Shown: positions 1-64,000 of the stretch, piece by piece
Layout of the letters: every line of letters starts with the position of its first letter
Position numbering within the stretch: position 1 is the first letter of the stretch
Source: Bilabrum cf. latius
Lineage: Eukaryota
Direction of reading: 5' to 3'
Assembly: GCA_965178125.1 (NCBI GenBank)
Contig: OZ237772.1
Coordinates: 310,001-374,000, forward strand
Length of the DNA stretch: 64,000 bases
Made by a program: the position numbers and the translations under genes
The notes under the pieces: model-generated
The model's input: the letters and a program-made list of their open reading frames with translations, nothing else
Databases searched by the model: none
Told to the model about the DNA's origin: nothing

Positions 1-509
1 TGCGCACTAGCACGCGTATGCTGCACCTAACTCTGAGGTGAAACATCAGGGTTGACTGCAGCAGCGATGCTAGTTTTCCTTGCTGCTTCACCGCTGGTCT
101 ATGTCTCCATCCTTGCACGCACTGCTGCCAACGCAGCAGGCCACATGCCACAGAACAACACCAACAAGTGTCCAGACGGGTCAAAAACCCATCCAGATGG
201 ATTATTCAAACGCTATATGTGCTTGATCCAGCGCACAGTTGGGGCTAATACCAAAAAGCTGCCGATCGAGGCCGTAATGTCGTCGCTGGTTATGTTGCCG
301 CAAGCAGGCAGCGACGCTAGTATCCATGGCAACGGGCCAAAGAGTCCGGTAAACCTGCCGATTAGTAATGCCGCGCTCCAACCGACGTTTGATTCGAACG
401 AGGCTTGAGAGAATACTCGAAGCACAGACAGCGAAAGTGCAACCGCCGGGAAGATCAACCCAAACTGCCCTTTATACGCCAGCATTGTACGCCACGCCGC
501 GCTCAACAA
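1..509 (-). CDS. FIT/Scs3-family (fat storage-inducing transmembrane) -like protein, 3' partial; 5' end uncertain (possible first exon near 562-585)
   Basis: ORF 213..509 continues through TAG (213-215) into ...NNPSGWVFDPSGHLLVLFCGMW..., which resembles the FIT-family D[IP]SGH motif. Hydrophobic segments are present and the frame runs off the left edge. Confidence 0.5.
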
Positions 510-663
510 CTAAACAGGATATTTTACTGTGTACTCATAGTAAAGGTCCCGGTCAACAAACACTTAGCAGTGTGATAGATGACATTTGATTGCTGTCGTC
601 ACAGCTGCCACTAGCACGCCGCGACTTTGTTGCAGCCTGGCGCAAACTAGTGAGCAAGCAAGC

Positions 664-2407
664 ATGGCTGCACGGATGCGACCGGACTATGACGATGATT
701 TCTTCGGGTCGATGAGTGATGACGATGAAACAAGTGGGAAAGGCGATCTTTGGGGCGCAGATCGCGACAGGCAGGCGGCCACCGCTTCTGCAACCAAGGC
801 AGCGTACAGAGAAGCAGCCGGTAATGCGAAAGAAAATGGAACCCAAGACGGATTTAATCAAGGATTCTCATCGGGTATGCGTATGGGCTTTGCTCGCGGT
901 TTCGTACACCAAGCAGCGGTGTGAGAACAAGACGTGGCATTCGTGCAATCGAAAGAAGCATGCCTAGCGAGTTTGAAGTTTGAACAACGTTTCCTGATGT
1001 TCCAACTTGCGCAGATCTATGGCGCTTGCGTTGCGAGAAAGGCGACACTTGCATCCGTTGGCCATCGGGAGGGCGACCGAGCAGCTGCGGGCGCTCATGC
1101 TCGCCACTGCAACGAAGCACCGGTTGGGCACAGAAAGATACCCAGCAGCGGAACACGCCGTGCAATCTCTCATGAAACGATCAGCCCGACCCCCAATGAA
1201 CCTCATTGCGGAGGAAAGGAGGAAAACTGACGCGAAGAGGGAGGCAGCCGCGCTGGCGGGGGAGCAGGACTTCAGCCGGTGCACCGAGGTCGAGGCGGCC
1301 CGACTGGTTCATGAAGGTTCGCTGAAGCGTCTCCGCCAGGTCGCCGAGATGCACATGGAAGCAGTGGAGGAGATGGAGCGACCCGCTGAATCGGTGGCGG
1401 GTGGCGACGGCGCGGAGGCTGTCACCGGGAGTGGCGCACATGCGGCTGCTGGCGATACTGACTCGGCTGGTGCTGCTGCTGCAGATGGCTAGGCAGTGGG
1501 GGGCGCCAGTGGTGGTGCCGATAGTAGTGTGACGAGTGGAGCGGGGGAGGGTCTGGCAGCTCGGAGGGCGGCGAGACGACGGAAAGGGAGGGGTGGCGGG
1601 GCGGTTGCAACCGACGGTTCCGCTGGCGGCGCCGCCGGGCAGGCTACCCTGTCTCTGGATGGGGGTGCGGCGGCCGAGCCGTCAGACCCGGCACAAAGCA
1701 ACCCGCGTGGAAGTGCCAGTGGCAGTGCAGCAGCAGGTACTGCTGATTCTGATTCTACCGGCAAAGATGGGGATACATCGGTTAGTGCAGATGCAGCAAG
1801 TGCAGCTGAAACGGAATTGGCAGTGCCAGCCTCCAGGGTGGAAGCACTGGTCCAGCGGGTCGGTGCGCGGCGCCGCAACGCTGGACCTGCGGAACCAAGC
1901 GACCCACTCCTCCCTGCCCGGCTCGCCGGACTCCTCGCTTCAATACTGCAGCGGCTAGCGGGCGAATTGGTGGAAGACGGGGGCAAAGAGGATGTGTAGA
2001 AGGAGGTGGGTCTAGGGGAGGCCCGTGGTGGGGCAGGGGCTGGAAGTGGGGCAGGGGTCGGGGAGGGGGCAGGGGCTGATTCTAGCACCGACGTGCGGAG
2101 CGGGCGGCTTGCGCTGGCATCCGTACTTGTGCGAGCAGTTGGCTCGCTCGACATGCAGGGTGCACTGCGCGATAGTGCGAGCGGGGCGGGGGCTGGCGGT
2201 CGAGTGGCAGGGGCTGCTGGTGATGCCGCGTAGTCCAGCGGAGAAGCTGATGCAGAAGAAGAACATGAGTAGGCCAGTGAAGGGAATGCCCCAGTGGACC
2301 GTGCAGTCCCTGTGTTCGGGCTCGGGGACGTGCGGGCGTGGGGGGTGGGGGGTCGCATCGTGGGCGAACAGGGCGCGGGGGACAAAAAAACGCGTGAGGG
2401 GTGGTAA
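664..2407 (+). CDS. Yae1_N (GxxxG repeat) domain protein with long low-complexity tail; join(664..920,1015..2407)
   Basis: QDGFNQGFSSGMRMGFARG is a Yae1/Lto1-type GX3 repeat. The GTGAGA...GCAG intron 921..1014 joins the frames exactly. ORFs 1007-1492, 1496-1999 and 2006-2233 are one frame separated only by TAG, ending at TAA 2405-2407. Confidence 0.6.
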
Positions 2408-3100: not shown

Positions 3101-6100
3101 ATGCAATTTTATGGACTATTACAGATATTAATAGCATGCTTGCTGTCATCTATCGCGTGGGCCAGCTCTGAACCCGTGGAATAGCCGTAGGAGGCGTCGC
3201 AGTTCGTGTTTATTGGATCGAACGGCAACTTGGCACACCGATACGTCTGGCCCGCTCTGTTTCGCATTTGGTCCGTGCAAGGTCCGGAGTATTTCTAGGT
3301 AGTAGCAGTTGTACGGCGTCAAAGGGACGTGGAATCTCTCAAGGAGAAAATATCTTAGAATCACCAGTGCACCGATGACGACAGCGATGCTGGTGATTTC
3401 ATCGCAACAGGGCTACCTGCCGGGTGCAGCAGGCGAGCAGCCCAGTTTGCCTCGGCTGTACGTGTTGTGGTTGCGAGAGACCCCGATGCAGACTATTTCG
3501 ATGTCGCCAACGCGCTCGGGCCACAGGTGGGGGATCTCGAATCGACAGCAAACCACGGCACTCCATCCCCTTTGCCTGTCGGAAACCGGATTTTCTACGT
3601 TGCAACACCACCCTCTGCCTTTGCAAGCGTGGCAGCCGGCCTGCACAAGCACTGTGTGGGACCCGGAGCCGTTCCCGCCTCGATCGCGCGCTCCAGCAAG
3701 CTCGTGCTAGAGAAGCCCATTGGGAGGGATCGGAGCAGCGCAGAGGCCCTTCTGGGAGGGCTCAGGGAACAGTGGGGCGAGGGGAACGTCCTCCTCATGG
3801 ACCACTTCCTCGGGAAGCGAGGCGCACAGATGATACCCGCTGCGAGAGCAGCAGCGGGGGAGGGACTGAGGTCATTTGCCTGGGACTGGATCAACCTCAA
3901 GGCGGTGGACGTTCTGGTGACCGAAACAGATCCGTTGAGCCCAGAGCGGGCGGACACGTACGCTGAGCTCGGCGTCGTACGGGACGTGATGCAGTCGCAC
4001 GCTACCCAGCTGGCGTCCCTGGTTCTCGGTCCGCTCTCGACCGGCTCAGCCGACAAGAGCCGCATTGACCACCCCACCGGTCGCAAGAGCGACTCCAAGG
4101 CGCACCCCACTGACAGTGCAGCAGGCTACCTCAAGCAGTACAAGAAGCCCGCCGGGGTGGTAAGTAGCGTGCGGATTGGAGATGTCGGATCCGCCAGCGT
4201 CCCTTCCGACGCGAGGACGCGCGTCGCTCTCGGGTTCGAACCCGCGCGCGGTGCCGGCAGGCACAAGCGCTCTCTTGTGCTTGGCCGGCACTACGATGCT
4301 GACGAGTGCGACACGCAGGGGGTGTCCTCGTCCTCCTCGGCTGGATCGCGGGCACTGAACGGCACGACGTGCGCCATCAAGGGCGGGGGCAACGGCGATG
4401 ATTCTGGCTCCGAATCCAGCAGGTCACGCACCCCTACGGCCGCCCGCGCGAGCATGATGCTGCACGTGGGTCTGCAGGCGCTCTCCGGCAGCGAAGGTTC
4501 CTCGCAGGGTTCGCTGGTCGTCCCGCCACTCCCCTCCCCGGAGCGTCTGGTGCAGGACCCCATGCTCGTGGGTGTACCCATGGCAGTTGTGGCCGGCAAG
4601 GGCCTGGGAAAGCGGGTGGCAGCCGTCCGCCTGCACACCCAGCACGGCGGCAGGGTCACCTTTGTTGTCCAGGGAACAATGCCGGTGGTGGCACCGGTGC
4701 CCGAGGGGGTGCTCCTGCGGGCGGCCGAATCGGCGCTGAGGGCCGCAGCGGGCCTGGCGAACTCTGACGAACCTTCCCTGGACCAGGTGCTGGAGTCGTG
4801 CTCGCAGGACGCTTTCAGCGGCCTGCCCGCGTGGAGGCCAGAGGGGGTGTACGCGAGCGAGGGAACAAGCGACGGCGATGGCACGGGTGCCGCAGGGGCA
4901 GCGGCGTATCGCGGCACGCTGACGAACGCAGGGCGCGTGCGGTTCGCCTTCGAGGCGTGGGCACTGGAGGTTGCAACCGGTACGCCGGGTCCAGGGAACA
5001 ACGTGACGTACCCCACGGCGGAGGAGGACGTGGCCCGTGCTGCCGCGGAGGCCGTGCGGCACGCAGCCATGAGTGCCCAGCTCGGCGTGGAGCTGGTGGA
5101 GGTACACGGCCCCGCCTTCATCGTGGAGCGGCCAGTCGAGCGGAAGCTGCAGATCCCCAGGCCAGCAGGCGTGCCCTCGGGGATGCGACTGGCGATCGGG
5201 TGGGACGAACCGAACCCGTAGGTGCTCGTCGCAGTGATGGACCCCTCCTCGATCCCAGGGAACAGTCCAGGGAACAGCCCAGGGAACAAGGGGGCGCAGC
5301 TCGAGGGCGCCATCGCCAGGCTAGAGGCAAGCGGCAGCTCCGTGGCCGCATACGCGCGCGTCCTACACGCCGCCCTCACCCCCGACACGGCCGATGACGC
5401 GCAGCTCTTCGCCTCACCACTCGAGGTGCTGGCTGCATGGCGGGCTTGGGACCCAGTGGTGCAGCGAGCGGAGGGGACCGGGCCTTTCGCCAGGGCAGCG
5501 CGGCTGGAGGCCGCTCGCCTTGCACGGCTGTCTTCTGCTGCCGCTGCCGCTGCCGCTGCTGTTCCTCAGGGAACAACCAACGCCACGGATGTGTTCCCTG
5601 GAAGTTCCGGCTCCGAGTCCTCCGTGGTGGACGAGGCCCTGATCGAGGAGCAGCGCGAGGAGGCCGATAGGCTTGCCATGGCGAGGGAGGTGATCGAGGG
5701 GCTGACCCCGCAGCAGAAGAAGAGCTTCGGGGCTGTGGCGGAGGAGGCCGAGGCCGACATGGGAGACTCCCGTGTGACGAGTGGGATCTCGCTCCCGAGC
5801 GCGCACAGCGACGTGGATGCCACGAAGGTGCTTCCTCCGGTACGGCTGTACAGGCCCGGCGAGACCGACTGGTTGGGTCTGGACGGCCCCGCGATGTGGG
5901 TGCGGTGTGACGATAACCAGTGTTCCCTGGATTCGATGGCCGTGGGTGACGCCGCCAAGGCGGGCATGCTGCCCCCCATGGCTCGGGAGGCTGCACTGCA
6001 GCGCCAGGAGCTGCTGAGGCAGGGCAAGCGGCCCCTCAAGGCCTCCTCGGGGCCCTCCACCGTGGACCGGCTGTATGACCTGATGGAGGAGGAGGCCAAG

Positions 6101-6277
6101 GAGATGTGCGTGGGGGTGGATGGAGTTGCACGGCATTGCGGCGCGTGGATGCAGGGAGCCATGGAAGACGCGGCCAGGAAGATGAAGATGAAGAACAACA
6201 AGTCGGAGTTGGAGAAGGAGAAAGTGGGAGGGTCCGGAGGGGGGAGGAGGCAGCGGCCGAGGAGCCAGGCAAGCTGA
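3101..6277 (+). CDS. H6PD: Glucose-6-phosphate dehydrogenase family, ER-luminal H6PD type with signal peptide (~1058 aa)
   Basis: With TAG=sense there is one frame from ATG 3101. It contains signal peptide MQFYGLLQILIACLLSSIAWA, Rossmann motif FVFIGSNGNLAHRYVWPALF, RIFYVATPP, LEKPIGRD, DHFLGK, GVVRDVMQSH and C-terminal AYARVL...EVLAAWRAWDP. In-frame TAGs are at 3182, 3188, 3296, 3356 and 5219; the stop is TGA. Confidence 0.85.
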
Positions 6278-6712: not shown

Positions 6713-9511
<2,799 letters not shown>

Positions 9512-11693: not shown

Positions 11694-11846
11694 GTTGGTG
11701 ACACGCAAATCATGAAGAATCATGCGGATAAGGGTCGCACCGCATCATCGTAGCCGCGCCTGGCACCTTGCACTCGTCATCGCACCAAATCTTGCAGTTG
11801 GCTGCCGGAGATCGAGCTTTCCACTTGTTCAAAAGGTCGTGATAGA

Positions 11847-13777
11847 ATGCGCGCACCAGTGGTAGCATTGATATTATTTGGTCTTACGCTATCCTATGTG
11901 CCAGTCTCATTTAGTGCGATCGTCCGACCTGTGCAACACGATGATGAGAGTGCTGCACAGCAGGGATCCTCGATGCCTCGGGATGAACAGGGCCAAGACA
12001 TTAATGTTTCAGATAAACCACAATTGGTGGCCTCTACAAAGGATACGATTCCATCCTTGAGTAGTCACACCTCAGCTAATGATGACGCAGATGGCGAAGC
12101 ATCTCACACGCAGCCGGAGCCGCAAGAGCATGCCATCCGGGGCAAGCACGAAGCAGGTGGATAGCAGGCTGCTACAGATAGTGTCTAGGTCATGCAAGGC
12201 AATCAAATAGATAGTGGCGCCAATGCCTCTGTCGTGATGAATACGGTTGCATCAGGCGAGCCATCGAGCGGGCAAGAGGTGCCAAGAGCAGGGACGCCCG
12301 CAGTGATGGCCCAATCAGAGCAGGATGCATCCGTGCTCGCACCACTGCCGCCGTGCAGATATGCATCCGCTGCACCAGTCCTTTGGACCGATCTAGGAAT
12401 TGCTTCCGGCGGTGCTGTTCCGCTGTGGGGCGGCGATGGCGACTGCGGGACAGTGCCACAAGACGGAGTAGCAGAGCCACTTGACGCAGACACCGATAGT
12501 CACCAATCCTCCAGTGGCAATGCGCACGCCGAGGCGAATGCTGAGGCAGAGGACCGTACCATCACCACCACCACTGCCACCGCCACCGCCGCCGCCACCG
12601 CCGCCGCCACCGCGACCGCATTCTACAGGTCGGTCCAGACGTGGCTAGATGGAGTCAAGGCGGGACGGAGGGGACCTCCCATTGGTAGCGTGCACTTTGG
12701 ATCCGAACATGACGCGCCTGCCACGGGCCAGATAGACGTGCCCGGCATGCCCCCGGGAGGCTTCGCGGTGTTCCCTGCCAGCTCCCCCTCGTGGCAGGGT
12801 GACCAGCGGGGGGCTGCGCCAGCGAGCGTTGACGCCGGCGCCGCGCCATTGCCGCCGTCGGTTCCGCTGTTGTGGTCGCTCAGGGAACAGATGGCGTTGT
12901 ACCGGAGAGTGTTGGTCGTCAGGGTGAGCTGCCTTGGAGATGCACCCACCGCGCTTCTTGAGGAGGCATTGGCTCCCGATCGGAGCAAGGGCATGCTGGT
13001 GCTGCTGCCCCCCAAGGCGGCATGGAGCGAGGAGACTCGAGGGGGTTGGCGCCGCGCACTGCGGAACTTCGAGGTGTACATGCTGCGTCGCGCCGTTCCC
13101 GTGCCGGTGTTCTTTGCTCTCGAAGAGCCGTCTGGGCAGGCCGCGCGACTGCATCGCGAGGCGTACGACGGTTGGGAGTGCCGTCGCACGGATGGACAAG
13201 GCACTGATGGTAGCGTCTCGTGTGACGAGTGGAGCGCATGCCCGGCGACCCCCCCTGCAGACCTAACGGTGGCTGCTTCAAGCGCGGACCGGGCCGGGCA
13301 TGTCAACGGCGGCGACGATGCGCACTCATCACACGGCAGGGATCCATGGTACCTCCGGTGGCTGCCCGCCAACGACAGAAAGGCCGTCCGTCGCATGCTG
13401 GCCAACATCGGGGACGAGGCGGGGAGCGCGATGTCGCTGCGGATCCAGGGAACATGGAGCACGGGGGGCGTGGCGGGGTCGGCGATGGAGGCATCGGCGG
13501 CGGCGGGTGGGCAGGGCACAGCGGAGGGTGGGGCGCCTGCGGTGGGACCCGGGCAGGTGCACGGCACTGCAGACGACGATGGGCCCAGCGATGGATCCGG
13601 AGTAGATGCCGGGAGCGGAACGTAGGAAGCCGGCGCCGCGCAATCGACCCCGCGCCGGGGCAGGAAGCAGGCAGCCACACCCCCCCTGGCAGCCGTGGCA
13701 GTAGAGGCTAGGGTAGGCGCGGACATGTCCAGGAAAGGCGCGCTGGCGAGGAGGCTGACCCTCCTGGCACAGCAGGT

Positions 13778-13816
<39 letters not shown>

Positions 13817-16043
13817 TCAGCAGCAGCAGCAGCAGCAGGGCAGCGGAGGCACCAAGCAGCGCGCGCTTCCCCGCGCCCGCCCGGGGATCATCGTCCTGGG
13901 AGCGCAGGCCGACTGTGTGACGAGTGCGGCGGGTGTGGGCTCCTGCAGCAGCGCGGCCTCGGGGATCGCCACGTGGGCGGAGGGTCTCCGGGCCCTGGGT
14001 GTTCCGCTATTGCGCGGCGCCGGGGAGGATTCCGGTTCGTAGGACCGCAGTGAGAACACCCAGCGTGCCCCTCGGTCTCTTCTAGCGGTTGCAACCACCG
14101 GCGGCGCCGCTGGTTCCGCAGGGATGGGGGCGTGGGCCGGGCAGCTGTCCCCCAAGCTCTCTCGAAAGATCGAGATGGCGGTGATGCTCGGCGGCGTGGG
14201 GGTGGGCGGCGCTGGTCCGATGCTCGGCGAGGACATCTCTTCTGGATTGGACCTCGAGGGGGAGGGGTATGGCGGGGATGCAGCGCACGGTAGTGCAGCG
14301 GGCGCCAGCCAATGGTTTGGGGGCGTGATGCACGTGCACACTGCGCTGCCGTGCGATGCACCCTGGCTGCCGGAGGGTGTGGCGCGGGCGTGCGAGCTCT
14401 TGGATTTCCTGGCGCTCGCCGCCGGACTGCCCCTCAAGATGCACCGCACTGCGGTGCCTGTGGGCGGCATGGACAGCGAGGCAGGGCCCGGCACGGACGC
14501 CAGCTTCCGCCACCCGCACGTTGGCTTCGCTCTCCGGCGTGTGCCTGCCTTTACACTGGGATTCGAACCTGGGACTGCGTCCTTGGGAATCATCCGTAAT
14601 GTGACGAGTGCCTCAGCCGCCCTCGACTCGGGGTCAGGTGGGCTGGCCATGGGCTCAGGCGTCGAACCTGGCCAGGCTGGCATGCTGCATTGGAGACATC
14701 GGGTCCATCCACGTGGACTTGGACGCGATGCAGAGGATGCAGGAGATAGAAGCATTCCCGGCAGCTCGAACTCGATTGAAGATGACTCCTCTGCGGAACT
14801 GAGGCGCGGCGCCGTGGCAGCCGGGGACCAAGACGAGGCTTGGGGCATCCTCAAGGCGGAGCAGGCCAACCGGATGCACTATTCTCAGGCATAGCAGGTG
14901 CGCGGCGCCACGGATGTTCCGCTGGGGAACAGCGGCTAGTACCTGAGAGAGGCGCGGCAGATGCGAGTGGCCACACGCAAGTCACGGCCGCTGGCCCCCC
15001 TAATCGGCGCCGCGCAAATGGTTCCGCACCCCACCAGCCTCCTAGATTCCTGGGCCCTCCCCGCCCCCTAGCCACCGGCCCCTTTCGGACAACGTGCAGT
15101 CGACGGCTGCGAGCCGCCTCCGGAGGGTCGGGTGCACGACCCGGCGGCCCGGACCTTTGCCCTCGCCCGTTTCTCCCTAGCACTGACCCAGGCACTGCTT
15201 TGGGACGACGGAGAGCCGCTGCCCTGGGAACGTGCATTGCACTGTGGTGCGGCTAGGGGTGATCGTACTGGTGGCAGTGCGCTGCAGTCGTGGCTCTGGA
15301 GCACCGAGAGAGGTGGCAATAGTGCCGGTGTTCAGGGTCGCGGTGACTTGAACCTGCCCTTGGGGCACCCCTGGGGGTATGTCCCCGGGGTGGGGCTGAT
15401 GGCGGGCAGGTGGACGCCGGAGGTAAATACGACAGGCTTTGATGCTAGCGGCAATGGATCGTCGGCCGCAGGCGCGGTGAGGGGTGGTCAAAGTGGCAGC
15501 GTTGCCTGGATGCCACGAGCCTCAGATGGCGCAGTTGCCAACATGGACGCAAGCAGGACGCTCAACCTGACGAACCTCGCGGGCTGGCACCGAACGTTCC
15601 GCAGGTTCCCCAGGGATCCGGCGCTGCTGTCCGGGGAGCACCATCCGCTCATCCGATCCCTGTTCCGGGTTGCGACGAACTGCAGCGACGACGCGCGGGT
15701 GCGTCGGGTGGCCGTCGGGTCGGGCGTCTCTGCCCTGCACCCGGCTTTCCGAAATGCGTTCAAGTGGGACACCTTCACCTCCCCCGGGCTGCTGCCTACT
15801 CGAGGCGCCACCCGGGAGGAAGCGGCAGGCGTGCTAGGGAGGGCGGTTGCAACCGTTGAGGAGAGCCGAAGCATGGCCGCGGAGCTGGGCCTGGCAGTGG
15901 GGGCGGCGGCATGGGTGGGGGCTGTAGCTCTGCTGCTGACGGCTCTCGTCGTGCCCACGGGAGCGAGAGAGGCGGGTGCGGCCTGGGTGGATGAAGCTGT
16001 CACTGCTTTGCTAGCCCCGCCGAGGGCAAGCAAGTCTATTTGA
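11847..16043 (+). CDS. NCLN: Nicalin (M28-like fold, ER membrane), ~1398 aa with low-complexity insertions
   Basis: Signal peptide, then GMLVLLPP, FEVYMLRRAVPVPVFFALE, IIVLGAQAD, HVGFALRRVPAFTL (cf. nicalin HERFAIRRLPAFTL) and a C-terminal TM. Five ORF-track pieces are one frame joined by 7 TAGs (12162, 12186, 13623, 14040, 14892, 14937, 15069); the stop is TGA. Confidence 0.8.
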
Positions 16044-16330: not shown

Positions 16331-18409
16331 TCAGGCCTCATGAATGGCCAAATGAGCTACGTTCGTTCCCCGTTGTCTCGTGTGGTCGCCCTCCCTTCCG
16401 CCATCGCCATCTGTAGACACCTCCAACAGCTCAATGTCGGTTGCTGCTCCTACTCGAGCGGCAGCCGCTGAGGGTGCACCCCTAGCTGCAGCACCGCTGG
16501 CTCCTCCGGTTTGGTCTCCGGCTGTTGCTGTCCCCAAGATTGGGTTGATCTGCATGGACCCACCATCCCCGCCCAAGGGAACCCCGCCTCGCCTTGACGC
16601 AGACAAGATCACACGCGAGCCGATGCCGCCGCGGAAGCACCCAGCGTAGTTCATCGCGAAGCCAGCACCCACCATAGCCAGAGCCGTGATGCTCACAGAT
16701 AGCGCGATCACAGATGCCTGATTCAGCCCATTCCCGGCACCGTCAGAGCTCGGGTTGCCACCGGGGCTGCCTGGTGACGGGCTCGGATCTGCCTTTCCAC
16801 CCTCGTCATCGTCTGCTGTGCCCACGTTGCCGGGGCTGGCAACCGGGGATTGCTCTGGTTCGGGTTCGTTGGAAGGAAGTGGCGGATCCCCGATGGCAAC
16901 ACCTAGGTATCTAGTAGAGGCCACGGCGATCACTTTGGTTCGAATGTCCGGCTGTACAGAATCATCGCTACACATCTGTCTCGCTGGTGTGCTGTCCCCA
17001 AAAATGGCCATGCCTTTGTCGCGCAACGCTGCCCAGAAGCACCACTCTCCTATAGGTCCCATTGCAACCGTATTCTGCCACATGCGAAGCCAGCTCCCGC
17101 CAGAAAGTGACATTGTCTGCGTGAACACTTCACCTTTATCGGTCAGAGCTGCAACGCCGCCCGAGCCCACGACCTGATTCACGCGGGCAGGAACAATCAC
17201 TGGGTTGCCAATGTAGCTCCCGGGGAAGAGTATAAGCGCGCGCCCGTCAGCTTTGAACGCTGCAAACTTCTCGTTGGTGGATTCCACGCGAACGATCCCT
17301 GACCGCAGGAATGTGTCGTACTTGCCTGCAAGCAACTGTACAACGGTAGGTTGGTTGTCGTACAAAAAAATGACCCGACCGGTGCTGGTAACGACGACCA
17401 CGCAAGTCGATTGCTCCGGAGCAAACGGCGCGATCTGCCTCACGCCGGATGCCAGCTCTGGTCCGTACCTGCTGGCCTCTTGCTGGATGGGGCCCCACGC
17501 GATAACTTGCCCCGTGCTTGTGCGGGCCGCGCCCTGCCTCGGGATGATGTCCACTACGTCAGTAAGAGGAGGAGGGCTCGAGAGGTAGCCCCACACGACG
17601 GCAGTGCCGTCTTGCTTGATGACAGCACCGCTGTTGATCGAGAGCTCGACAACTTTGGCAACGCCGCTCGTCAGCTGGCTGAAAGGAGCCGACACCTGGC
17701 TGCCGCTCGCAACGATGACAAGCTGACCGTTGCTCTTCATGGCGTATACCTATCCGGATGGCGACACTCCAATGCTGTTGACGCCGTTCTGCAGCTCGTC
17801 TTGTACTTGTGTTGAATTGATGCTGGATCCCCACGACACGAACCTGCCGTCCGATCGGAGTGCGGCAAAGCCGTTCTGTTCAAATTTCCCGACATTGTTA
17901 GATCTTACATCCACCACACCACTCTATAATAAGTCCCATACGTAGCGGGTATCAGTAGCAGAACTCGCTTCGAAGCGATCGTTGGAAGACTGCGAGCCCC
18001 AAGTTACCACTTGTCCATTATCCTTGATTGCTACGAAGCTGTTCAAGCCAGCCACGAGTCCCACTGTCCCAGACTGAAGGAATTTGGATGCTCCAGTCCA
18101 GGAGGCGTGGAACGCCGCAACAGTACCAAGGCCAAGGTCTGAAGCTGGCGGCTCGAGTATTCCCGACACAACGCTACCATTCTCTAGCCTGGCCGCATAT
18201 GCAACTCCTACTACTTGAACTGCACACACTGTAGACGGGCTCAGATCTCGAGGAACGAGCAGGTGCGATCTAGTCCAAATCGCAGATAGCGACTGCGCCT
18301 CGCCGGTTTGGGACGACCACGCTTCTTGCGGGGCCGGAGACGAAAAAGGCCATGTAGGGCAGGTCGCAGCTGCAACAGCAATCAAACTCGCTGAAAGCAA
18401 AGCATGCAT
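16331..18409 (-). CDS. Type I membrane protein with RCC1/BLIP-II-like beta-propeller repeats
   Basis: Signal peptide MHALLSASLIAVAAA, repeats such as FVAIKDNGQVVTWG / FAALRSDGRFVSWG / AVIKQDGTAVVWG, a Pro/Ser stalk and TM VIALSVSITALAMVGAGFAM. TAG at 17924 and 17750 is read through; the stop is TGA. Confidence 0.75.
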
Positions 18410-41912: not shown

Positions 41913-42360
41913 GATGTCCTGCAGGTGCCATCTCGGATGTGCGTGGCGAATGTGTTGGATGCTGAGGCTTGTTGTGTAGACAGCGTTGGGACTCGGGGCT
42001 GTGGTAACGCGATTCGATCGCACCGCTCTCCTTCTCGGCAGCGCAGCCCCGGTCACAATCGGATGACACAGGGAAGGGCGCGTGGGGCGGCACGGCCGGG
42101 CAATGCATGTGTGTTTATTTGTGCCAGCATATGGAATTAGCTTGAGCAAGTCGTACTTTACAAGCGTAACTAATCCATGGATGCATCACGCAAGCAGGAC
42201 CCGCAGAAGACCAGGCACGCTGCAGCTCTGCAGCATGAGGTTCCGTTTGTTCGATTGCAGTGCGCGGCGCCCAATTTACGCATTGATCTATAACAGCATT
42301 GGTGCATTACCACAGCTTCCTCAAAGCATGGCTGGGGTAGGGATGGGTGGTTAGGCTGCT

Positions 42361-44353: not shown

Positions 44354-44523
44354 ATCAAAACTATTGATGCTCTGTTCGATGCAGGGGGCGACTTACGCAC
44401 AAATATGTCTTTCTTGTATGAACTATTCAACCGAATCAGACGCGATGGAGTGCGTGCCTGCGTACCGGCCGGCAGCGTAAGGTTACGTAACCTAGACCTT
44501 GTCCAGGTATGCACGTCTCGGTT

Positions 44524-44610
44524 GTGCACTGCAGCACCGTGCACACATCGGCAGTGCACTGCAGCACCGTGCACACATTGGTGGTGCACTGCAGCACAGT
44601 GCGCACATCA
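44524..44610. repeat. Three ~30-bp tandem repeats (GTGCACTGCAGCACCGTGCACACATCGGCA-like) with internal GTGCAC palindromes
   Basis: Units start at 44524, 44554 and 44584, between convergent gene ends. Confidence 0.8.
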
Positions 44611-45510: not shown

Positions 45511-46001
45511 TGTAGTAACAGAGCAGAAAATTTGTGTCGATTAACCGGATTCTGTAGTTTTTGTAACGTGTCGATACATTCGAAATGTTGGTGTCTACAT
45601 CTTGTACCCAATATATCCCACGGTTTCGTGAGTATCTGTGCAATTTGTGGCTACAATGTATGTTATATGCATGTTATGTGCATGTTTAGACTGTTAACAT
45701 CCGTGATTATCAAAGAAATAGCTTGTGGATTGGACTCAAAAGTGAAAACAGTAGATTTGCGTTTAAATGAACATGCCATGCAGCGCCCGTGCAATTCTTG
45801 CTGATAGGTGCACCCCAGTGACGATTAAATTGTATGCTTAAACGGAATGTTGAAGATTGCTTCGATCTAACCCTCTAGTTGTGTTGTTAGTGCAGCCCCA
45901 CTTGTATTTGAATTTCTTGGCCTATTTGCAAGCTTGTCCGATTCGCTCTGTCGGCATTCGGAGACAGAACCGCAACATGCAGGTATTCGTATGCTATCCC
46001 C

Positions 46002-49000
46002 ATGCTTTTCGCAGCTAGGGCTATGAAACCGTCTGAACAGCGTGTGTCTGGGCCAGCCGCACCAGCGGCACTAGGCTCGTAGGTTGCCAGCGCGCGTTCA
46101 GCCACGGCTCCGTCTGCGCATAAACCAGCGAGCGCTGGTAGCACACAGTATTCTGCACAGCACGGGCTTTCTGCGTCAAGCGCTGGGTCGTCAGGAGAAT
46201 AGTCGTCGTCGTCGACGTCGTCATCTTCCCAGCATGCTTCTGCGCCGGCTTCTCCCCAACTGGGCCCCGACGCCGGCTGGAGCGCCGGAATGACGAGCGT
46301 GCTCAAGGCCAGCGAGGAGGGCGACATGGAAACCCTCACGGCCCGCTGGCGCAGCTCGTACGCAGGCAGGTTTCAGGCCGTACCCCCCACGGTGGATGCG
46401 CACCCTTTGCTCATCGCCGTGCACTTCCTGTAGCCAGCCGCAGTTGAGGTAAGAAGGTCTACTCAATGTAACTTGTATCACGAATCTGGGCGTTGCTTGT
46501 GCATTTGACTAACGTGCTGCTGCTGCAAGCACCCTGGCACCACTGACCCAACCACTAACCCCTCGACTGGGCATCCTGCCTCACTCGTCACATCACACTC
46601 ATCACACTCATCGCACATCGCAGTTCCTCCTTGACCGGGGCATGTCAGCGGACCAGCCGGGCACTGCCGCGTCCTACCCCGGAGACGGCATGATGGCCTC
46701 GGAGCTTAGGGGGATTACGCCCATGGAACTCAGCGAGAAACTGCTGTTTGTGCACGGGCGGAGGGGAAGGAAGGGCAAGGCAGTGCAGGCGATCAGGGGA
46801 CACCTGCGGGCCGCAGCAGAGAAGGCGAGATTGGCGGCATACAGGGAACAGCTGGAGGCGGCCTAGAAGGCTGGCGCCGAGGAAGGGGGTGACAGGAGAG
46901 GAGGGGGTTCCGCTGCCGGTGTCTGCGCTGGGGAGCAAGGGGAGGGCGGTAGCGGAGGGTCGCAGGAACAGGGGCAGGGCGCCGGCGGCGGGTTGCCACA
47001 ATCGTCACCCGTTGTTGGCCGCAGTTCCGCTCGCGGCGCCGCGCAGGAACAGGGCACTCCCGGCCACGAAGGTCCTGCTGCCGGATCCGCGCTTCTGACG
47101 CCCGCCACGCTGCAATACGATACACCCCGGGGCGGCAGCGGCGGAATGGGAGGTGGAACGGGGGATCAGCAGCAGCAGCCTCTCACCGTGTTGCGATCAC
47201 GATCTGCAGACAGCACGGCCTCATCGTCGTCATCGTCGTCTGCTATGGGGAGTGGGGGAGCAACTGGCAACAGGAGCAAGCGGCCCCCACGGCGAGCTGC
47301 CGCGGTAGCCGCACGATAGGTGGTTGCAACCGCTACGCAGGCAGACGGGGATGACAAGCAGCAGCAGCAGCAGCAGCAGCGGCAGCAAAAGCCGTTGATG
47401 AATCAAGGGGACTTGCAGGGAGTCGAAAAATATGCGGCGGGCCACCAGTCTTCTAGGCATCGCAGCAACGATGACGGGGTGGCGCAGCGTCTCTTCGCCG
47501 AAGGTGCAGCGCACGATAGTGCAGCGGGAGCTGCCCGCACCGTTGGTCGCAAACGACCCAGGGCAACCAGTCCCCGGGTACCATCAGGCGAGCAGATCTA
47601 GGCCCAGGCATAGACGCAGTGTGACGAGGATGCGGGCGGCTCGGGATCAATTGCGCCTGCTGCAGCAGCACCGGCGGCCCGACCTCCAAACCGGAAAAAG
47701 CGCAGGCAGACGGCCGGTGGTCCAGCTTAGACCGCGGTATCACCAGCGGCAGCTGCCGCCACCAAGCAGCACCAGCAGCACCAACAGCAGCAGAAGCAGC
47801 TCAAGCCTTAGGGAACAAACAGCAGGGTACCCTCGTGGGTTCCGAAGCAGGTCGCCTCTAGGCCCAGCCACAGGCAGCCCCAAGCCCCCATGGAGCCATC
47901 GCACTCGTCACACCAGCATCACCCTCAGGAGTCGGCCCGTCCGCAGATGCTCCTGCGCACCCGCACGTAGGCGGCTCGCACCCGGCCGCCAGAGGCTGCA
48001 GGTGACCAGCCCCTTTGTTGCGTGCTGTTTGCGCTGTCGAACCACCCCGATGCGGTTGCGACCGATGCCGTGCTGCAGTGGTGGCAGACCCACCGACCCG
48101 CTTGGGCAGCTGCCGCTGGTCCTGCCGCGGTGCTTCCCTTGGTGATCCGGGGTGAAGGGGGGGCGGCGGAACCGGCCGGTCTGGGGGATGGGTCTGCACC
48201 TGCACCTGCACCAGCACCAGCATCGTCGTCGTCCTTGCAATCTACATCTTCATCTTCATCTTCTTCTATGGCCTCCTGTCAATCGGGACCAAGCTAGGAG
48301 GCGCTGTCCGATGCGCTCAGGACAGCCGTGCGGGGGGCTCTGCTGGACATAGAGTCGACGGGGCCGGCGATGGTCCGGCACGGTGGAAGCAGGGATCGAG
48401 GAGGAGGCCACAGCCGGGGCGCCATTGCAAGGCACTCGGAATCACAATCAGGCTGGGTGGGCGGCCTCAACTCAGAAGACCCTGTGGCCATCGCGGAGGC
48501 CGTGCAGCGGAAGATCCGGAGCCTAAATGAGAGCTCTCCTACAGCCAGTGGCATCGGCGCGGCTCAATCCGGTGCTGGTGCTGGTACTGGTGCCGGTGCC
48601 GGTCACGTCGCACCCAGCGCACTCTTGCAGGAATTGAACCTGGGAGCGATCGGCAGTAAACAGGCAGGGAGCGAGACAGCGCCCCCCTCGGCTTCGATAT
48701 CCGAGCTGGAGGCTGCTTGCCCCACCAGCCTCAGGCCATCGGGTGTGACGAATGCGGGGTCACGGTCTCTGGGGCTCGGGTGGTTCGAAGCGCGGCGCCG
48801 CTTGGTTGCGGAACCTGTCTCGGACTGCGTAGCCCGAGTGCGCAGGATCGTGCACGGCGCTGCTGGGACAGGAGCCATGGGTGGTGTTGCTGATCCGATC
48901 ATTGATCCGATCGCGCAGGTGGTCGCCAATCAGATCCTAGCCTAGCAGAGGAAGCGGCGGGGCAAGGGCACCTCGTCAGCGGCGCCGCGCACTTACGATG

Positions 49001-50436
49001 GTCCATAGGACGCCGACATAGCGGCCACGTACGCAGTTGCTGCGGCAGCCGCTGACAAAGCAGAGAATACCGTGTCTACTGCAGGTGGCCCATCGGGCCT
49101 AGCCTGGGAACAGCGCGTTCGCATCGGGGCTGGCATGTATCCGTTGAGAGCGGCGCTGCTCCGGTGGATCTGCGACGTGCCGGTTGCAACCGGTGCATCG
49201 CCAGCCCCCGTGGCAATGTGCCTCCTGCTCCTGCAGTCGCCCATGGCCGTGCAGCGGCTGCGTGTAGCGAGTGCGCTGGGCCAGGGACTGGTGGTGACCC
49301 CGCTGGGAAGGTCGGCAACGAACCTTCACCGCAGGGTTCGGCAGCTGGGCGAGCCAGAGAATGCAGCCGCCTCTTCGTCGCGCCCTGCGCCCGAAGCGGA
49401 CGCAGGACCTGGGTCTTCGCTGTTCCGGTTTAGCAGGTCGGATCGGATGGCCCTGCGGCACGCGGCCGCCTCGGCCCCCACACCACTCGCTACCCTGTCG
49501 GTCCTGGAGCGGGCGGCTGCTGCTGAGGTTGCAACCGGGGGGGGTGTGCTGTCAGTTGGACTGCCCGAGAGCCTTGCGCGGCGGCTCGACCGGGCCGCCA
49601 GGGGGGCCGTTGGTTCCGCTGTGGCGGCGCCGCGCATCGGCCACCTGCCCGACCTGCAGGCCCTCCTGCGGGAAGGGGCCCAGAGGGTGGCCGGCAGGAG
49701 GAACCCGCTCCGGGGGCTCAGCCGACTGGCAGTGGCCATGGGCGGGGTCAGGGAGGGTGCACCGCACGGTGGTGCAGCTGGTGATGCCCCCATGGTTGGG
49801 GAAGCTCCATCGCAGGGGCATGGACAGGGGCATGGACAGGGGCATGGACGGGGGGAGCAAGCGGGGCCCACGGTGTGGGACGGTTCCCTGCCGCAGCCCG
49901 CGCATGTGGCGGGCCCCGCCTCACTCGTCATCGTGTCTGTGCCTTCTTCGATCCCAGTGGATCCCGCGGTTGCAACCACTGACGACCTGAGACAGGTGGC
50001 GCGGCTGGTGCGGGCCGTGGGCGGCTGCGTGCCCCTGGCCAAACAAGCAAGGGTGCTGGTGGTCGCAAGAGCCGCCGAGAGCCTGGGCGCCGCGGCGGTG
50101 CGGAACATAGGGCCCGGAGGTGCGGAGGCATCACTGGAAGCGTGGGAGGTGCAATCTGCGACCAAGTGGGAGGAGAGGCTGCGGGAGTTGGTCGCAAACG
50201 AGAAGCCGGTGAGGCTGCTGTGTCCCTCTCCTGGCTGCCCCCCCATGGCTCGCATGTCGCTTTCACCGCTGGTGCTGGCGGATGGTACGAGCCCATCCGG
50301 TGAGATAGAGCTTGGTTCGAAATCCACGTTCGGGGTATAGCCGCTGGTGCTCGCCACGAGCGGCCAGGTGTGGCAGGAGCAATTCGTGCTGGCCTGCGTG
50401 CAGCTCTCGGGTAGGGAGGGAGAAATGACCGGATGA
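46002..50436 (+). CDS. Large low-complexity protein with N-terminal ankyrin-like repeats; join(46002..46448,46624..50436)
   Basis: VLKASEEGDMETL..HPLLIAVHFL*PAAVE|FLLDRGMSAD spans the GTAAGA..CAG intron 46449..46623. There are ~14 in-frame TAGs and no TAA/TGA until TGA 50434-50436. The start could be 46002 or 46023. Confidence 0.65.
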
Positions 50437-57750: not shown

Positions 57751-60700
57751 ATGTATGCTAGTGTCATTATATTATGCATCATTTGTTTTGCTGAGGTAGT
57801 CCTAGTCAGCTCGCACAAGCCGGTAACATTAGGGATGGCTCGATCAATGCCGCAAACTACCAAGTTTTGGTCTGACGCGCCCGGAGAAGCTACAAATGGC
57901 AGGAATCGCTGTAACTGTGAGAAGCGGTTAAACAAATGGTCGTGTATGTAAGTATTCATGCTCAGCAGTTCATCTGTGCTCTGTCACTGATGGCTTTCCT
58001 TGCAGCAACCTGGCTGCTTCAAGATGACCTGTCGGCGCTTGGGATCGCTCCCAATCACGCGAACCGAACCCGTAGGATATTGCAATACAATGATACGAAA
58101 TTAATGAAGTAGAGGTCAAGCTGTTTGCTGGTGGATCACCCATGGCGTGGTATACCAGACTCTCGGGTCCTGCAAGGCTGGCTGCCATTGTATTGGACGG
58201 CCAGTCCAAGACGATCGCCCAATCGCACAGAAGTTGCATCCCATAAACTTTCCTTTGCTGCAATGCCAACCGTGTCTGCGGCGTCATCGCCCTAGCGACC
58301 TATCGTATCTGCAAGATAGATCACGCAATGGCCGAGCATCGCTCCGCCGGTACGCGCGGCTGAGCCGTACACAATAGAGCACTGGGAGCTGTCAACCATG
58401 CCACGGGTGCAAGGATTATCATTACTTACCAACCAGATGCGACTGTGGTCTAGGAGCAACACAGGCACTCCTCCTGGCAGACCTGCCACTCTAGAGGAGG
58501 TTGGAGCTGCTGGTGTCACCGGCTATGTGCAGGCCTCCTCTCAATTGATGATATTGAGGAGGGGGGGCGCAACAATGAACGGGATATGTGCCTCGGTCTC
58601 GATCGTGGACTGCCCCCGCCGCACGTTTGACCTGGACTGCACCCCCATGGACGAGCCCATCCCCCTCAACGACACGTGCAGGCAGACGGTGCTGTGGCCC
58701 AAGACGTTCGGACGTGGTAGCAGTAGTACGCAGAGCCTTCCAAATAGAAGTACAAATGGGTCATGTCCCGCCCCAATCGTGCCTTTTGAAGGCAACATGG
58801 ACGGGTACACTGCATTGCCGCCTGGAAGCAGGGGGGACCCCCGAGGCTGGGTGCATTCCACTGCAACGTGTTCCCCCAGGACCATGGATGGGAGCACGCG
58901 CAACGGCCTCTCTGCAGTCGCAAGAACGGTCGTGTGGACGCAGTCAGTCACGACAATCTGGCCCCCTGGCACCGTTGCCGTGCTGCCCGTGGGCCCGAAT
59001 GCAACCGCTTCAGGGGATGTAGCTGACTACCCGTGGAGGGTAAATAGAGGACACGTTGTGATGACAGTCACGAATGTTCCATCCACTGCAATGTCTCCGA
59101 ACGAGACGATCTCATCGCAATACGGACCACCAAGCTAGTAGAATGGTAGGAGCTCCAGTCACTGGAGGCACAACGGAACTGCCAGCACGCCTGTGCTTGA
59201 TGATGTTGGCAAGCATAACGTGGATGTTGGCAAGCATAACGTGGATGTTGGCAAGCATAACGTGGATGTTGGCAAGCATAACGTGGATGTTGGCAAGCAT
59301 AACGTGGATGTTGGCAAGCATAACGTGGATGTTGGCAAGCATAACGTGGACCAGCGGACGGTATCGTATGCTGCCATGGCTTGCGGGCTGCCTATTTATT
59401 TCGTGCCAGCTGCACCAGATGCCCAGCTCGTGTTCCTTGATGACGCCTCCTGCATCGCCTCCAGGTCATGCAGGCCAGACGTGGGATCCTCCACCAATGC
59501 CAGCAGCCCACAGTACAGGAAGGCCGTGGATGACTACGTGACATCGGACATCGCTCAGCTGTTCCCAACGAGCATGGTAGGGTGCGCGTTATCATACGAT
59601 CTCGATCGGGATGATTACAACTCTGACTTGCTTCCGGTAGACATGCCGATCGCACAGAACGGGGCCGGTTTTTCCTTTGGCTCCGTGATGCACAGCTACT
59701 TGCCAAGCGATGGGTACCCATACACACCCGCAACTAAAGGCAGATGGATGCTTAATGCCACTTCAGGAACTACAATGGGCTTGCCTGGTCTCAAGAATGA
59801 GCCTGTAGTTCGAATTAGCAACCATAGGTCAACGAAGTCAATGGGGTCCTCGCAGACATATGTGCAACCATTGTTGCCTAAAGCCATGATCCACGGCCCA
59901 TATGCCGTGTACCGAGGACCCGTCCCGCACCGCATGCTGCCCCCATCGCCCAATGCCACCCTGCCTCCCATCAGCAGAGGACGGTGGGCATGCGCCCGCA
60001 CTGCCCCGCAAGGGTACTTCCAGGAGCGCCCCTACTGTCTGGCTATGTGCGACGACCCCAGCCACATCGCGGTGGATGTGGGCCTCGAGCGGGATGCGGG
60101 GCTGGCTGTGGCTGGTGTCGGGGCAGGGATGAAGGGTGCATCTCGAGATGGGTGGGCTCTGGTGGCGAGCCAGGCGCGTCACTGGTACTCGTACTGGCTT
60201 GGGTATCCTGGTCTGATGCAGGACGAGAGGCTGTACGGGAACGATCGGCTGGCGCAGGTGCCTGCTCTTGGGTCTGTGCATCCGGTGGTGAATGGATTGT
60301 CTAGCCCTGTGTATCGAAATCTCACTGCGCCGGACGGCAGCTCGATTGGATTGCCTAGTCCGCAGATGGCATGCATGCCTGACGACGACGATGTGTGGCA
60401 CCGGTCGTGGTCTCGATCGTCTCGATGGGCACAGCGCTTACCTGTGAGCAGGGGCTACGTTGAATTCAACCTGAGCTTTGATGCGGCTGCGTGGCCAGCT
60501 GCCGTGCCGCTAAGCACCCGGGGGGCAGCACCAGGTCTCAACTGGCCTGTCCCAACAGAGGCCCAGCTGGAGTGGCTAGAGGATGACATAGAAATGGATG
60601 TGGCTGACATGGTGACGGCAGAGGGTCGGGCGCCTGGCGCTTCTTGCGCTGCTAAGATTATCTAGGTCAAGACGGGAGCATCTATTCCCGCCACTGCGGG

Positions 60701-63425
60701 TTGCTCACCAGTGGACAAAGAAGAGGGTTTTTGTTAGTCGCTGCCCACAAGTGTATCCGTCCGACTGTCGTGTGACCCCCCTCCCTCGGTAGCTCAGACG
60801 CTCATGTTGCCACGTACGAGGCAGAGGGCCCTGACCGCAGGCAGCGTGCTGCAGCGAGTGGCGAGGAGGATCAGCGGAGGACCAGATGCCGGGCTGGCCG
60901 GAGTGTGGATGCTGGCCGCAGATCCTGAGTCCGTCCGGGTGTGCATCGAGCTGCCAAGGCTTGCAACGATACAGCGTGGGAACGGCGGCTTGTCAAGTGC
61001 ATTGCAGTGTGGTGCAGACCTTACGAGCTCTTAGCTCGTTGGTGCGTCTTTTCGATTGATCTCAGCGGTTGCCGTGTGTGCCATTCTGGCTATCCTGTTC
61101 GTCGGAATGATGGTCCTTTTATGCTGGTGCGATGATGGTGGTCGCAACTATCTGTCCGTTAGCCAGCCTGCGGTACTGTTGTGCATTCAATTAGTTTGGT
61201 GGTGTGCTGTGATTGCATTGGGCGAAGCTGGGCTGTATCGGCCTGCGGTAGCACTTGGAATCATGCTTGGTTTGACTGCAGTGGGCCGAGCAACCGCCGT
61301 GGTGTGCTTCGTGTATCCATTCTGTCCCTCGTGCAGCCAAAGCCAATGGCGAACGAGACAGCACTCAGCAGAAGATAGTAGTGTTGAGCTGTATCATATC
61401 AAGGAGGAGGACGACGAAGACTCAAGCGTGTTTGGCACCACGGATTTCAACTAGGACTGGCAATCACGGATGCGTGAGGCCAATCGATTGGGTGACGAGG
61501 CAGCACATGGCACGCTTCGCAAAAAAGCACTGGTACCTGTACCGCGAAGTGTCGTTGGCATCCCTTCTCCTCCAAGTGTTGCAGCACGCTATGACAAGCA
61601 AGCTGGCACTATGAACAGAATAGCCTTAGACTAGCAGCGGCCCTGCCTCTAGAGCTCGGGCCACAGCGACAATGGCACGATGAACAGAATAGCCTTAGAC
61701 TAGCAGCGGCCCTGCCTCTAGAGCTCGGGCCACAGCGACAACTGCCTCGACCTGCAACCGGGAAGACACGATAGCAATGATATATAGGAAGAGCATCAGC
61801 GACCCAGAGTCCTCAGTATGGACGAAGTCGGTTCATTGCGGCGCGGGCAGCTGGGTGCGCATGCAGTGCAGCCTCCCCCCTTACGGTCCATCGGTGGGAT
61901 GCGAGGACACGCTCTTATGGGTACTCGGCACCTGTCGAAGATGCTAACCATCCACAGTGATGAGACCTCCACCACTGATATAAGAACGGAATCAGGTGCT
62001 GGTACTGGGACCGACACAATCCCTGCACGGCCCATTGAGCAAGCGCGGCGTCACTCGAGACCAACAGATGCCCACAGAGAGCACGAGGCGAGCATGGAAA
62101 ACCATCCCGTAGTGATCGGATCCAGTGCTGACACGTCCAGCTAGTTCGAAACAGATGCAGCAGATGGGCGCATGGATTGGCCGCACGGTCCACGTCAGAC
62201 GATGCAGCCCAGTGCAGCTCACGAATCGTATCCATCGACCCGCTAGGAATCGCACCTGCATCTGGGACTGTAGTCGTCGTCACAGTCCAACTCCCGGGTG
62301 TCCCTGCCAACAAGGGGTGCTTCTGCTGGAGGCCCGCACTCAGTGCAAGGGGGCGACCTAGGGGCAAGCAGGGAATATCGGTCTAGGGGAGCCTCTTCTC
62401 CTACGGGGGTGCATGAGCTGACCGCGGAATCCAGTGTGGATTCAAACGCGGTCAATGAGCTTGCTTTGCGAGCGGACAACGATGCCCAGCCGAGGCCCGA
62501 GAGGCAATCAATTGCGGCCTTGTACGACCAGAGTTCAGCTCAGTACGGGGATGAAGATGCGAAGGGACGAACATGCACTCTCTTTGAAGCCCCTCATCTA
62601 GCTTGCCTTTCGTGCCAGTGTTGCGTGAGAGATGCACGGGATGCGTCTTGCACTCGAGATGCACCATACCTCTGCAGGCTGCTTCCGTGCCGCAATGCAG
62701 TGCAGCAGTCCTGGAGACTCCCTTGGCTCCCTCAAGTGGCACCATCCGCCCCTTACCCCCGCGCTGTCCACGGACTAGGGGCGGTGCTTGCTGTGCTGCA
62801 GTGGGATGCACTCGAGGGAACGATGTATGCGTATACCGCGTGGTAGCATGATGCCATGGGAGCGATGGATACTGCCCGGCATCACGAGTTGAGAAGTGCG
62901 CTGCTGGCAGCAGAAGTTGGCAACCGCAAGACTACGCTGGTGGGATCAGAGTTTGGCAACCGCAAGACCGCCTCTTTACCTTCTTCCGCTGCTCCATCGA
63001 GGAGCCCATCGGTCCTGTCTATAGAACCTACGGATCCACGTGGCATACACTTGGCATCCCGGTACCAGATCAACCGGCCCACGACGGCATGGGCCGACAC
63101 GAAGAAAAGCATGGATGTGTCACCCAACGCACCCAGCGCCGTGGACCAATCGAGCACAAAGGAGGGTCAAGGCAGTCGGTCTGCTGGGCCAGGGAACAGG
63201 GTAGGTCTGCTGTTCCGTCTGTTCGACGCAACGGCTGTGCTCGCGATCGTCACGTGGGCCGTTCTTTGTTCCCTGGGCCAGTGCCCCGTGGGTGCCTGCA
63301 TGCGTGACCCCGGCAGCGACCTCGCCCAGCTGCCCCCAGTGCTGCTGTTGTGGGATCGCGCGGCGGTGGCGGGGGTGGCGGTGGTGGCAAGTCTAGTTGG
63401 GAGTGTGGCTGTCCTGTACAGCTAA
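57751..63425 (+). CDS. Unrecognised large multi-pass membrane protein family, copy 4 (~1861 aa); join(57751..57916,58006..63425)
   Basis: Signal peptide MYASVIILCIICFAEVVLVSS, GTGAGA..GCAG intron 57917..58005, one frame with ~18 TAGs and a TAA stop. Confidence 0.8.
59202..59348 (+). repeat. 21-bp coding minisatellite x7 (DVGKHNV)
   Basis: GATGTTGGCAAGCATAACGTG is repeated 7 times in copy 4 only. Confidence 0.95.
61611..61741 (+). repeat. 69-bp-period tandem duplication (in frame, 23 codons)
   Basis: ATGAACAGAATAGCCTTAGACTAGCAGCGG...CACAGCGACAA at 61611 and 61680. Confidence 0.9.
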
Positions 63426-63634
63426 ATTGGGAATAAAGGTGGCTGTATTGCTAAGGAAAGGGACGAGTTTGGCATCGGCTGGCTTTGGGTCTACTTGTTA
63501 TGACAAGAGGAACAAGCATGATTGCCAGCCTGGCTGCCAAGAGTGCCCGCAGAGGATGGCACTCGTCACGAACTGTAACCAACCCGTCGGTGGATCAAAA
63601 CAAAGCCTATCTGGAATGGTCTGAGCTTTCTTGC

Positions 63635-64000
63635 ATGTTCTTTCTATCAACGATATTTGTTGTTATTATTGTCCATGCTTCTGGCGAAATAGGAGGTATT
63701 TTCAACAGCATACTGCACAATGCTCCACAGACTGCAGGCCTAGTTGCGAGCAACAGCACGTAGAATCATTTTCGCTGCAACGGTGAGCAACGTCATGCCT
63801 TCCGGCTTGTAGCAATAATTCAATTGTACGTATCTGCTCGCGTTGCGGATAAACTGTTCTTGTATCGCAGCAACTTGGCTAGCAAGTCCAGCAAGTGCAA
63901 GTCTTGGCGCAGGGCCTGGATATTTGCGTGCGCATCGAATCTTGGATTCGTCATTATAGAGACTTCGTAAAATAGCTGGTCAGTAGTCAGCGACGAATCA
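63635..64000 (+). CDS. Same membrane protein family, copy 5 (5' part; runs off window); join(63635..63782,63871..>64000)
   Basis: Signal peptide MFFLSTIFVVIIVHA, then ..RCN G|GTGAGC..GCAG|CA ACT TGG, the same phase-1 intron as the other copies. ATWLASPASASLGAG..HRIL resembles copy 1 ASWFLLPHPAQLGVG..HRIL. Confidence 0.7.

Follow-up and report, generated by a model that had tools for sequence, protein, structure and literature searches.

UAG read as glutamine in the nuclear genes of a flagellate that is probably related to Cafeteria

Few kinds of nuclear genetic code are as rare as those that treat UAG and UAA differently, and a case of this kind bears on how the release factor eRF1 can drop one of the two codons only. 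A code in which UAG specifies glutamine and UAA remains a stop has been described in Iotanema spirale, Hartmannula sinica, Trochilia petrani and Protocruzia tuzeti (PMC11687900, PMC10553269, PMC9161772). An earlier note on the DNA considered here had called such a code very rare and cited Iotanema; this is correct, but the code is more widespread than that implies, since it also occurs in the other three species, which are ciliates (PMC11687900). In Iotanema, a T32G change in the GTS motif of eRF1 is the proposed cause of the loss of UAG recognition (PMC5304391).

No nuclear stop reassignment in stramenopiles was found in the literature searched, a scope outside which most subscription journals fall. 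The portions available of a 2024 stramenopile review (PMC11412368) and of the Cafileria paper (PMC6723347) mention no such nuclear code, and those of a Cafeteria study mention a non-standard code for the mitochondrion only (PMC6972860). PMC4159000 deals with stops created by polyadenylation in Blastocystis, which is a different phenomenon. Within this literature the description of the code as possibly undescribed holds, but an earlier mention could be contained in the supplement of PMC9733931, a paper that describes Bilabrum sp. as contaminating algal transcriptomes. The case described below is probably the first of UAG as glutamine in Stramenopiles.

The window is a single stretch of 64,000 nucleotides (64 kb). 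Its GC content is 61%, its genes are dense and its introns few. In-frame codons were tallied in 19 hand-made segments comprising 17,576 codons, which hold 113 TAG, 577 CAG and 174 CAA; TAG is 13% of the glutamine codons. Sixteen of the 19 segments carry at least one in-frame TAG. The segment models begin at the first ATG, and a few 5' TAGs possibly lie upstream of the real start. The genes of the window are the following.

3101..6277, plus strand: G6PD/H6PD-like gene with G6PD/H6PD matches in the PDB; 5 TAG; ends in TGA
6713..9511, plus strand: VLRF1-domain gene (Pfam bVLRF1, E 6.6e-26), the domain being followed by 4 TAG; ends in TGA
11694..16043, plus strand: long open reading frame (ORF); 8 TAG; ends in TGA
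16331..18409, minus strand: RCC1-like repeat protein; 2 TAG
18594..25061, minus strand: paralogue A; 22 TAG, with CAG opposite 23978 and 23483 in other copies; ends in TGA
25875..30875, minus strand: paralogue B; 8 TAG; ends in TGA
31212..34035, minus strand: BBS2, the taxonomic marker; ends in TGA
34424..36683, plus strand: spliced gene (joint 34454 to 34561) encoding a coiled-coil, then DPF-type repeats; 6 TAG, the last of them 13 codons upstream of the terminal TGA
36890..39550, plus strand: EEP-like gene; 6 TAG; TAA just after the SDH motif
39558-40265, plus strand: ORF with 0 TAG among 8 glutamine codons
42328..44353, plus strand: RPB3 in five exons; TAG at 42352, 42880, 43326 and 44204; ends in TGA
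44400..45520, minus strand: spliced gene (joint 45117-45260); TAG flanks the intron on either side in its longest frame, which is not backed by homology
46513..50436, plus strand: long ORF; 11 TAG; ends in TGA
50881-52086, plus strand: S49 peptidase with 0 TAG among 13 glutamine codons
52626..57575, plus strand: paralogue C; 12 TAG, of which 53634 and 55107 face CAG; TAA after the shared C-terminal block
57921..63425, plus strand: paralogue D; 18 TAG; TAA after the shared C-terminal block

All ten sites cited in the earlier note are TAG (CTA on the plus strand for minus-strand genes), and their peptide contexts are as quoted. The gene labels fared less evenly. G6PD/H6PD, BBS2 and S49 pass their Pfam cut-offs; RPB3 falls under its own, yet matches solved RPB3 chains. 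In the G6PD/H6PD-like protein, Pfam G6PD_N covers residues 62-266 (E 9.7e-24), and the TAGs 3296 and 3356, which had been placed after a Rossmann fold, both lie inside this NAD-binding match. The SDH motif does follow TAG 39365, but the EEP label rests on a weak Pfam match (E 0.019), and the name nicalin, given to the ORF at 11694..16043, finds no support from Pfam or PDB. The S49 gene and the ORF at 39558-40265 lack TAG, which is compatible with chance at 13% TAG usage.

Other genes can be described briefly. The VLRF1-domain gene contains a long QA dipeptide repeat, and we take it to be Vms1/ANKZF1-like. To our knowledge VLRF1-domain genes are general in eukaryotes, and no connection of this one to the genetic code is seen. 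An open frame at 1-563 (minus strand) runs off the window with 4 TAG; it has no Pfam match, and a motif in it presumably resembles those of FIT/Scs3 family proteins.

The number of ORFs of at least 500 codons is 7 under the standard code, 18 when TAG is opened, 7 when TAA is opened and 24 when TGA is opened. Because opening TGA lengthens ORFs too, ORF length alone is not diagnostic, and the meaning of TAG has to be read from alignments.

The residue assigned to TAG was decoded from alignments of the four paralogues, of four database relatives, and of BBS2 with its relatives, with sites counted as well aligned at a local identity of at least 0.5. Informative columns for TAG are few. Glutamine is the majority residue at 7 of the 9 well-aligned TAG sites, or in 6 of 8 distinct columns, as two of the seven share one column; the two remaining sites face Gly and Arg. 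At the same threshold, glutamine is the majority at 70% of CAG/CAA sites and at 1.2% of the sites of non-glutamine codons, so that TAG columns are enriched for glutamine, as the earlier note had predicted. At looser thresholds the majority is glutamine at 10 of 18 and 11 of 30 TAG sites, against 67% and 55% for CAG/CAA. A likelihood decoder gives Q as best for TAG (-10.5), followed by K (-23.2); on known codons it was correct in 2855 of 2900 draws. Q remains best at all three thresholds, ahead of the next residue by 9-13 log units. A decoder based on neighbour context, which called TAG as I or H, was dropped, as it got only 12-23 of 59 known control codons right.

Individual columns quoted earlier give the same picture with one exception. 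In the paralogue columns 23976, 23481, 53634 and 55107, TAG faces CAG in other copies. The codon at 60735 is a real TAG, but glutamine is weakly supported there, with Q in 1 of 3 paralogues and T in 2 of 3. The repeat position occupied by TAG 17924-17926 reads Q, TAG, Q, T and A in the five RCC1-like repeats, as had been proposed for an internal repeat. Q stands opposite TAG 43326 of RPB3 in all 3 of the PDB alignments displayed, out of 17 matches.

The paralogues themselves are proteins of 1,600-2,150 aa that share a C-terminal block, contain hydrophobic segments and have a Cys/Trp-rich core that is conserved. The copy scanned has no Pfam match, and four database relatives were found. Paralogue D contains, at about 59220-59340 (plus strand), roughly seven copies of a seven-residue unit. 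Read depth at 28-30 kb suggests further copies in the genome.

Direct exchange of TAG and CAG can be observed in BBS2. Searches with this gene returned fragments from relatives that are 72-96% identical. Among nine database fragments of relatives (five of BBS2, four of the paralogue family), six stop exactly at a column where the window has glutamine or TAG, as is expected if a gene caller using the standard code had cut the relatives at TAG. DNA was obtained for one relative, L001, and stop codons were read directly for it alone. L001 was found by a metagenome scan using P0005; a metagenome scan using P0001 gave no match.

L001 BBS2 is one frame of 772 codons with 3 TAG, 0 TAA and 0 TGA, and is 75% identical to BBS2 of the window. 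The 689 aligned codons comprise 518 identical residues, with 286 synonymous and 171 non-synonymous differences; 381 third positions differ. Two CAG codons of the window (33813 and 32352) are TAG in L001, and TAG 32595 of the window corresponds to CAG in L001 and to Q in P0001. The third TAG of L001 is opposite Arg, within a variable linker. Column 481 of BBS2 varies across eukaryotes, with Q in 11 of 92 rows, a point against the glutamine reading. TAG thus swaps with CAG like a synonymous codon, and does so in a gene kept under purifying selection. Because L001 has the same code and the swaps go both ways, the code is a trait of the clade and not a sign of decay.

BBS2 of the window shows a frame shift in a G-rich run near 31820-31870 (minus strand), where L001 and P0010 stay in one frame and run X1 is ungapped against the window. 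A homopolymer error common to the window and X1, a very short intron or a genuine frameshift could each account for it.

The four paralogues end soon after one shared C-terminal block at TGA, TGA, TAA and TAA. TGA closes 14 of the 18 ORFs and TAA the other 4. The conserved N- and C-terminal blocks of the four paralogues enclose 6,643 codons with 52 TAG, 0 TAA and 0 TGA. The two zeros are partly built in, because the frames were picked as TAG-open ORFs; the point of the comparison is that both conserved blocks sit in one frame in each copy. From the CAA/CAG ratio (67/189), about 18 in-frame TAA would be expected between the blocks, and 0 are seen. Since the stretches between the blocks are free of TAA, and paralogues C and D and the EEP-like gene all end in it, UAA is not reassigned here; UAA and UGA both remain terminators. 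A ciliate-type code, in which both UAA and UAG are glutamine, was rejected on the same 0 TAA versus 52 TAG, and because opening TAA adds no long ORFs.

Transcript evidence is available for part of the window. The stretch was found in seven runs from three studies, and four of the eight runs listed, X1, X5, X6 and X7, were compared over 25500-45400. X1 is possibly the source sample, and therefore not independent of the window. That X5-X7 are RNA was a guess, with X5 "probably DNA" in part; spliced contigs were later found in all three. Joining the RPB3 exons (intron joints 42577-42671, 42753-42844, 42909-42999 and 43496-43718) gives one 510-codon frame with 4 TAG. All four introns are of the GT-AG type; X5, X6 and X7, which come from two studies, lack them, and X1 keeps them. 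Among the differences listed, the X5, X6 and X7 contigs have none over 42999-43496, a segment that includes TAG 43326. That this TAG is unchanged in spliced contigs from three runs and two studies argues against editing and against assembly error. The earlier note had expected TAG to be kept unedited in mRNA, which is what these contigs, and contigs only, indicate at one firm site; low-level editing would escape notice, because assembled contigs lose rare variants.

Three further regions were matched without differences among those listed. The TAGs flanking the 45117-45260 intron lie in parts matched by X5, X6 and X7. One X5 contig, 36802-39685, covers the EEP-like gene with its 6 TAG, but contains no intron that would mark it as RNA. 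X5 also matches paralogue B over 25890-28623. RPB3 exon 4, used as a query against longer proteins, found no homologue.

The stretch 31200-36700 recurs in runs labelled as three different organisms, which suggests a recurrent culture companion or contaminant as its origin. For this reason the contaminant Bilabrum sp. of PMC9733931 is a candidate for the organism's identity. Loose contig ends in X5 and X7 at 31742, 32634 and 33333 derive from a different BBS2-like sequence, and a second related flagellate may be present in these samples.

Decoding of columns, reciprocal CAG/TAG swaps, UAG in spliced contigs and TAA at homologous ends together bear out the central claim of the earlier note, that UAG is glutamine and UAA still a stop. 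UAG means glutamine in the nuclear genes of this organism with very high confidence, and it is with almost the same confidence a third glutamine synonym beside CAG and CAA in a code where UAA and UGA terminate. The alternative that leaves most room is a dual use of UAG, as glutamine inside genes and as a stop close to the 3' end of the mRNA, or as an ambiguous codon with partial termination. Several ORF tails are unalignable and could hide such ends: TAG 11643 lies 16 codons ahead of a TGA, and TAG 44204 of RPB3 lies 49 codons ahead. TAG is, however, not depleted toward the 3' ends of the 18 ORFs, where it makes up 2/17, 3/23, 7/37 and 11/74 of glutamine-type codons in the last 20, 30, 50 and 100 codons; the homologous ends that can be checked are TGA or TAA, and 22 TAG within one ORF leave scant room for leaky termination. 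Dual use is unlikely. Editing of UAG to CAG (or UGG) before translation under a standard code is very improbable: a U-to-C change would yield glutamine columns as well, and the comparison rests on assembled contigs rather than raw reads, but no other letter appears over the spliced RPB3 segment with TAG 43326, and TAG columns face Q, not W.

Decay under a standard code, through pseudogenes or C-to-T hypermutation of CAG, would account for part of the pattern, as CAG and TAG are one transition apart and nonsense mutations would also hit glutamine columns; the frame shift in BBS2 points the same way. Hypermutation should have a CAA-to-TAA or CGA-to-TGA counterpart, but none occurs among 165 CAA and 166 CGA in-frame codons. 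Pseudogenes are hard to reconcile with an RPB3 that is spliced with 4 TAG, or with L001, whose single frame is still open after 381 third-position changes and has TAG at different glutamine sites. The chance of decay is slight, and equally slight is that of UAG being sense for another residue (Lys, Glu, Leu or Tyr). The latter draws on mixed residues at loosely aligned sites, against which stand the lead of Q at every threshold and the direct CAG/TAG exchanges. Sequencing or assembly error is the least probable of all. X1 may offer no independent confirmation, but long pieces are matched in X5, X6 and X7 from two other studies with 0 differences among those listed, and an unrelated contig (L001) has the same code, which largely refutes it.

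The organism can be placed by BBS2. Its closest named BBS2 is that of Cafeteria roenbergensis, at 34% identity, and in 5 of 6 trees the window sequence and its close relatives group with Cafeteria and one further sequence. Support for the grouping is 93 with FastTree (92 of 154 rows), 98/93 under LG+C20 (33 rows) and 94/98 under LG+F+G4 (41 rows). On the same 41 rows, it is 93/0.999 after removal of the 30% most composition-biased columns and 89/0.983 after removal of 50%; under SR4 recoding the grouping is lost to a weak alternative (78/60). The GARP-rich bias is strong in both the window and Cafeteria sequences (3.16 versus a median of 1.27), and their branches are long. Rfam gives 0 matches within the window, rRNA included. 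The organism is thus likely to be a bicosoecid stramenopile near Cafeteria, on moderate evidence from one gene. The earlier guess of an independent flagellate lineage is supported by this grouping, which lies away from fornicates and ciliates.

A route to this code can be proposed from known cases. A duplicated tRNA-Gln(CUG) would have mutated to the anticodon CUA, which is one change from CUG and would pair with UAG and not with UAA, and eRF1 would have lost recognition of UAG while keeping UAA and UGA. CAG-to-TAG transitions would then be silent, and could have spread to about 13% of glutamine codons. The reassignment would predate the split from the L001 species, and postdate the split from Cafeteria if the BBS2 tree is right. 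This combination of a tRNA(CUA) and a changed eRF1 is probable. The eRF1 gene is outside the window; ARAGORN found no tRNA in these 64 kb, and a relaxed run gave 95 noise calls, 0 of them with anticodon CUA.

Taken as a whole, the reading of an unreported, independent nuclear UAG-to-Gln change in a bicosoecid clade beside Cafeteria is slightly favoured. It would be the first nuclear reassignment of a stop to sense in stramenopiles, found in no fewer than two well-diverged species and set in a GC-rich genome with UGA as its main stop. If true, separating UAG from UAA requires neither ciliate biology nor AT pressure, and a GC-rich stramenopile case would mean that the code arose separately in a further supergroup. 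Its study could draw on an assembled genome, on transcribed runs and on another species with the same code, as well as on a sequenced sister with the standard code, Cafeteria, whose eRF1 and tRNA sets could be compared. Since relatives' proteins are cut into fragments at glutamine columns, the lineage is mis-annotated in protein collections. Speculatively, the code could hinder infection by giant viruses and virophages such as those of Cafeteria.

The closest counterpart is Iotanema spirale, where UAG is likewise glutamine and UAA is kept as a stop; it belongs to another supergroup (Fornicata) and has UAA as its dominant stop, whereas 14 of 18 ORFs of the window end in UGA (PMC5304391, PMC9161772). 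Hartmannula, Trochilia and Protocruzia also read UAG as glutamine and use UAA and UGA as stops, with UAG at 18.5-31.8% of glutamine codons, compared with 13% in the window (PMC11687900). In the two phyllopharyngeans among them, UAA closes about 87-92% of genes, in contrast to the UGA-dominated window (PMC11687900). The window is unlike ciliates in its 61% GC and in a BBS2 that falls beside Cafeteria. The ciliate-type code shares UAG as glutamine but has UAA as glutamine too (PMC10553269), where the window still uses UAA as a stop. Genetic code 15, found for instance in crAss-like phages, has the same codon table (PMC9523058), but these phages use bacterial release factors, whereas the window belongs to a spliced eukaryotic nuclear genome. 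Finally, Cafeteria roenbergensis/burkhardae resembles the window in its GC-rich, intron-poor genes (PMC6972860), and differs in that its BBS2 is recorded as a full protein of 816-828 aa, unlike the TAG-interrupted BBS2 of the window.
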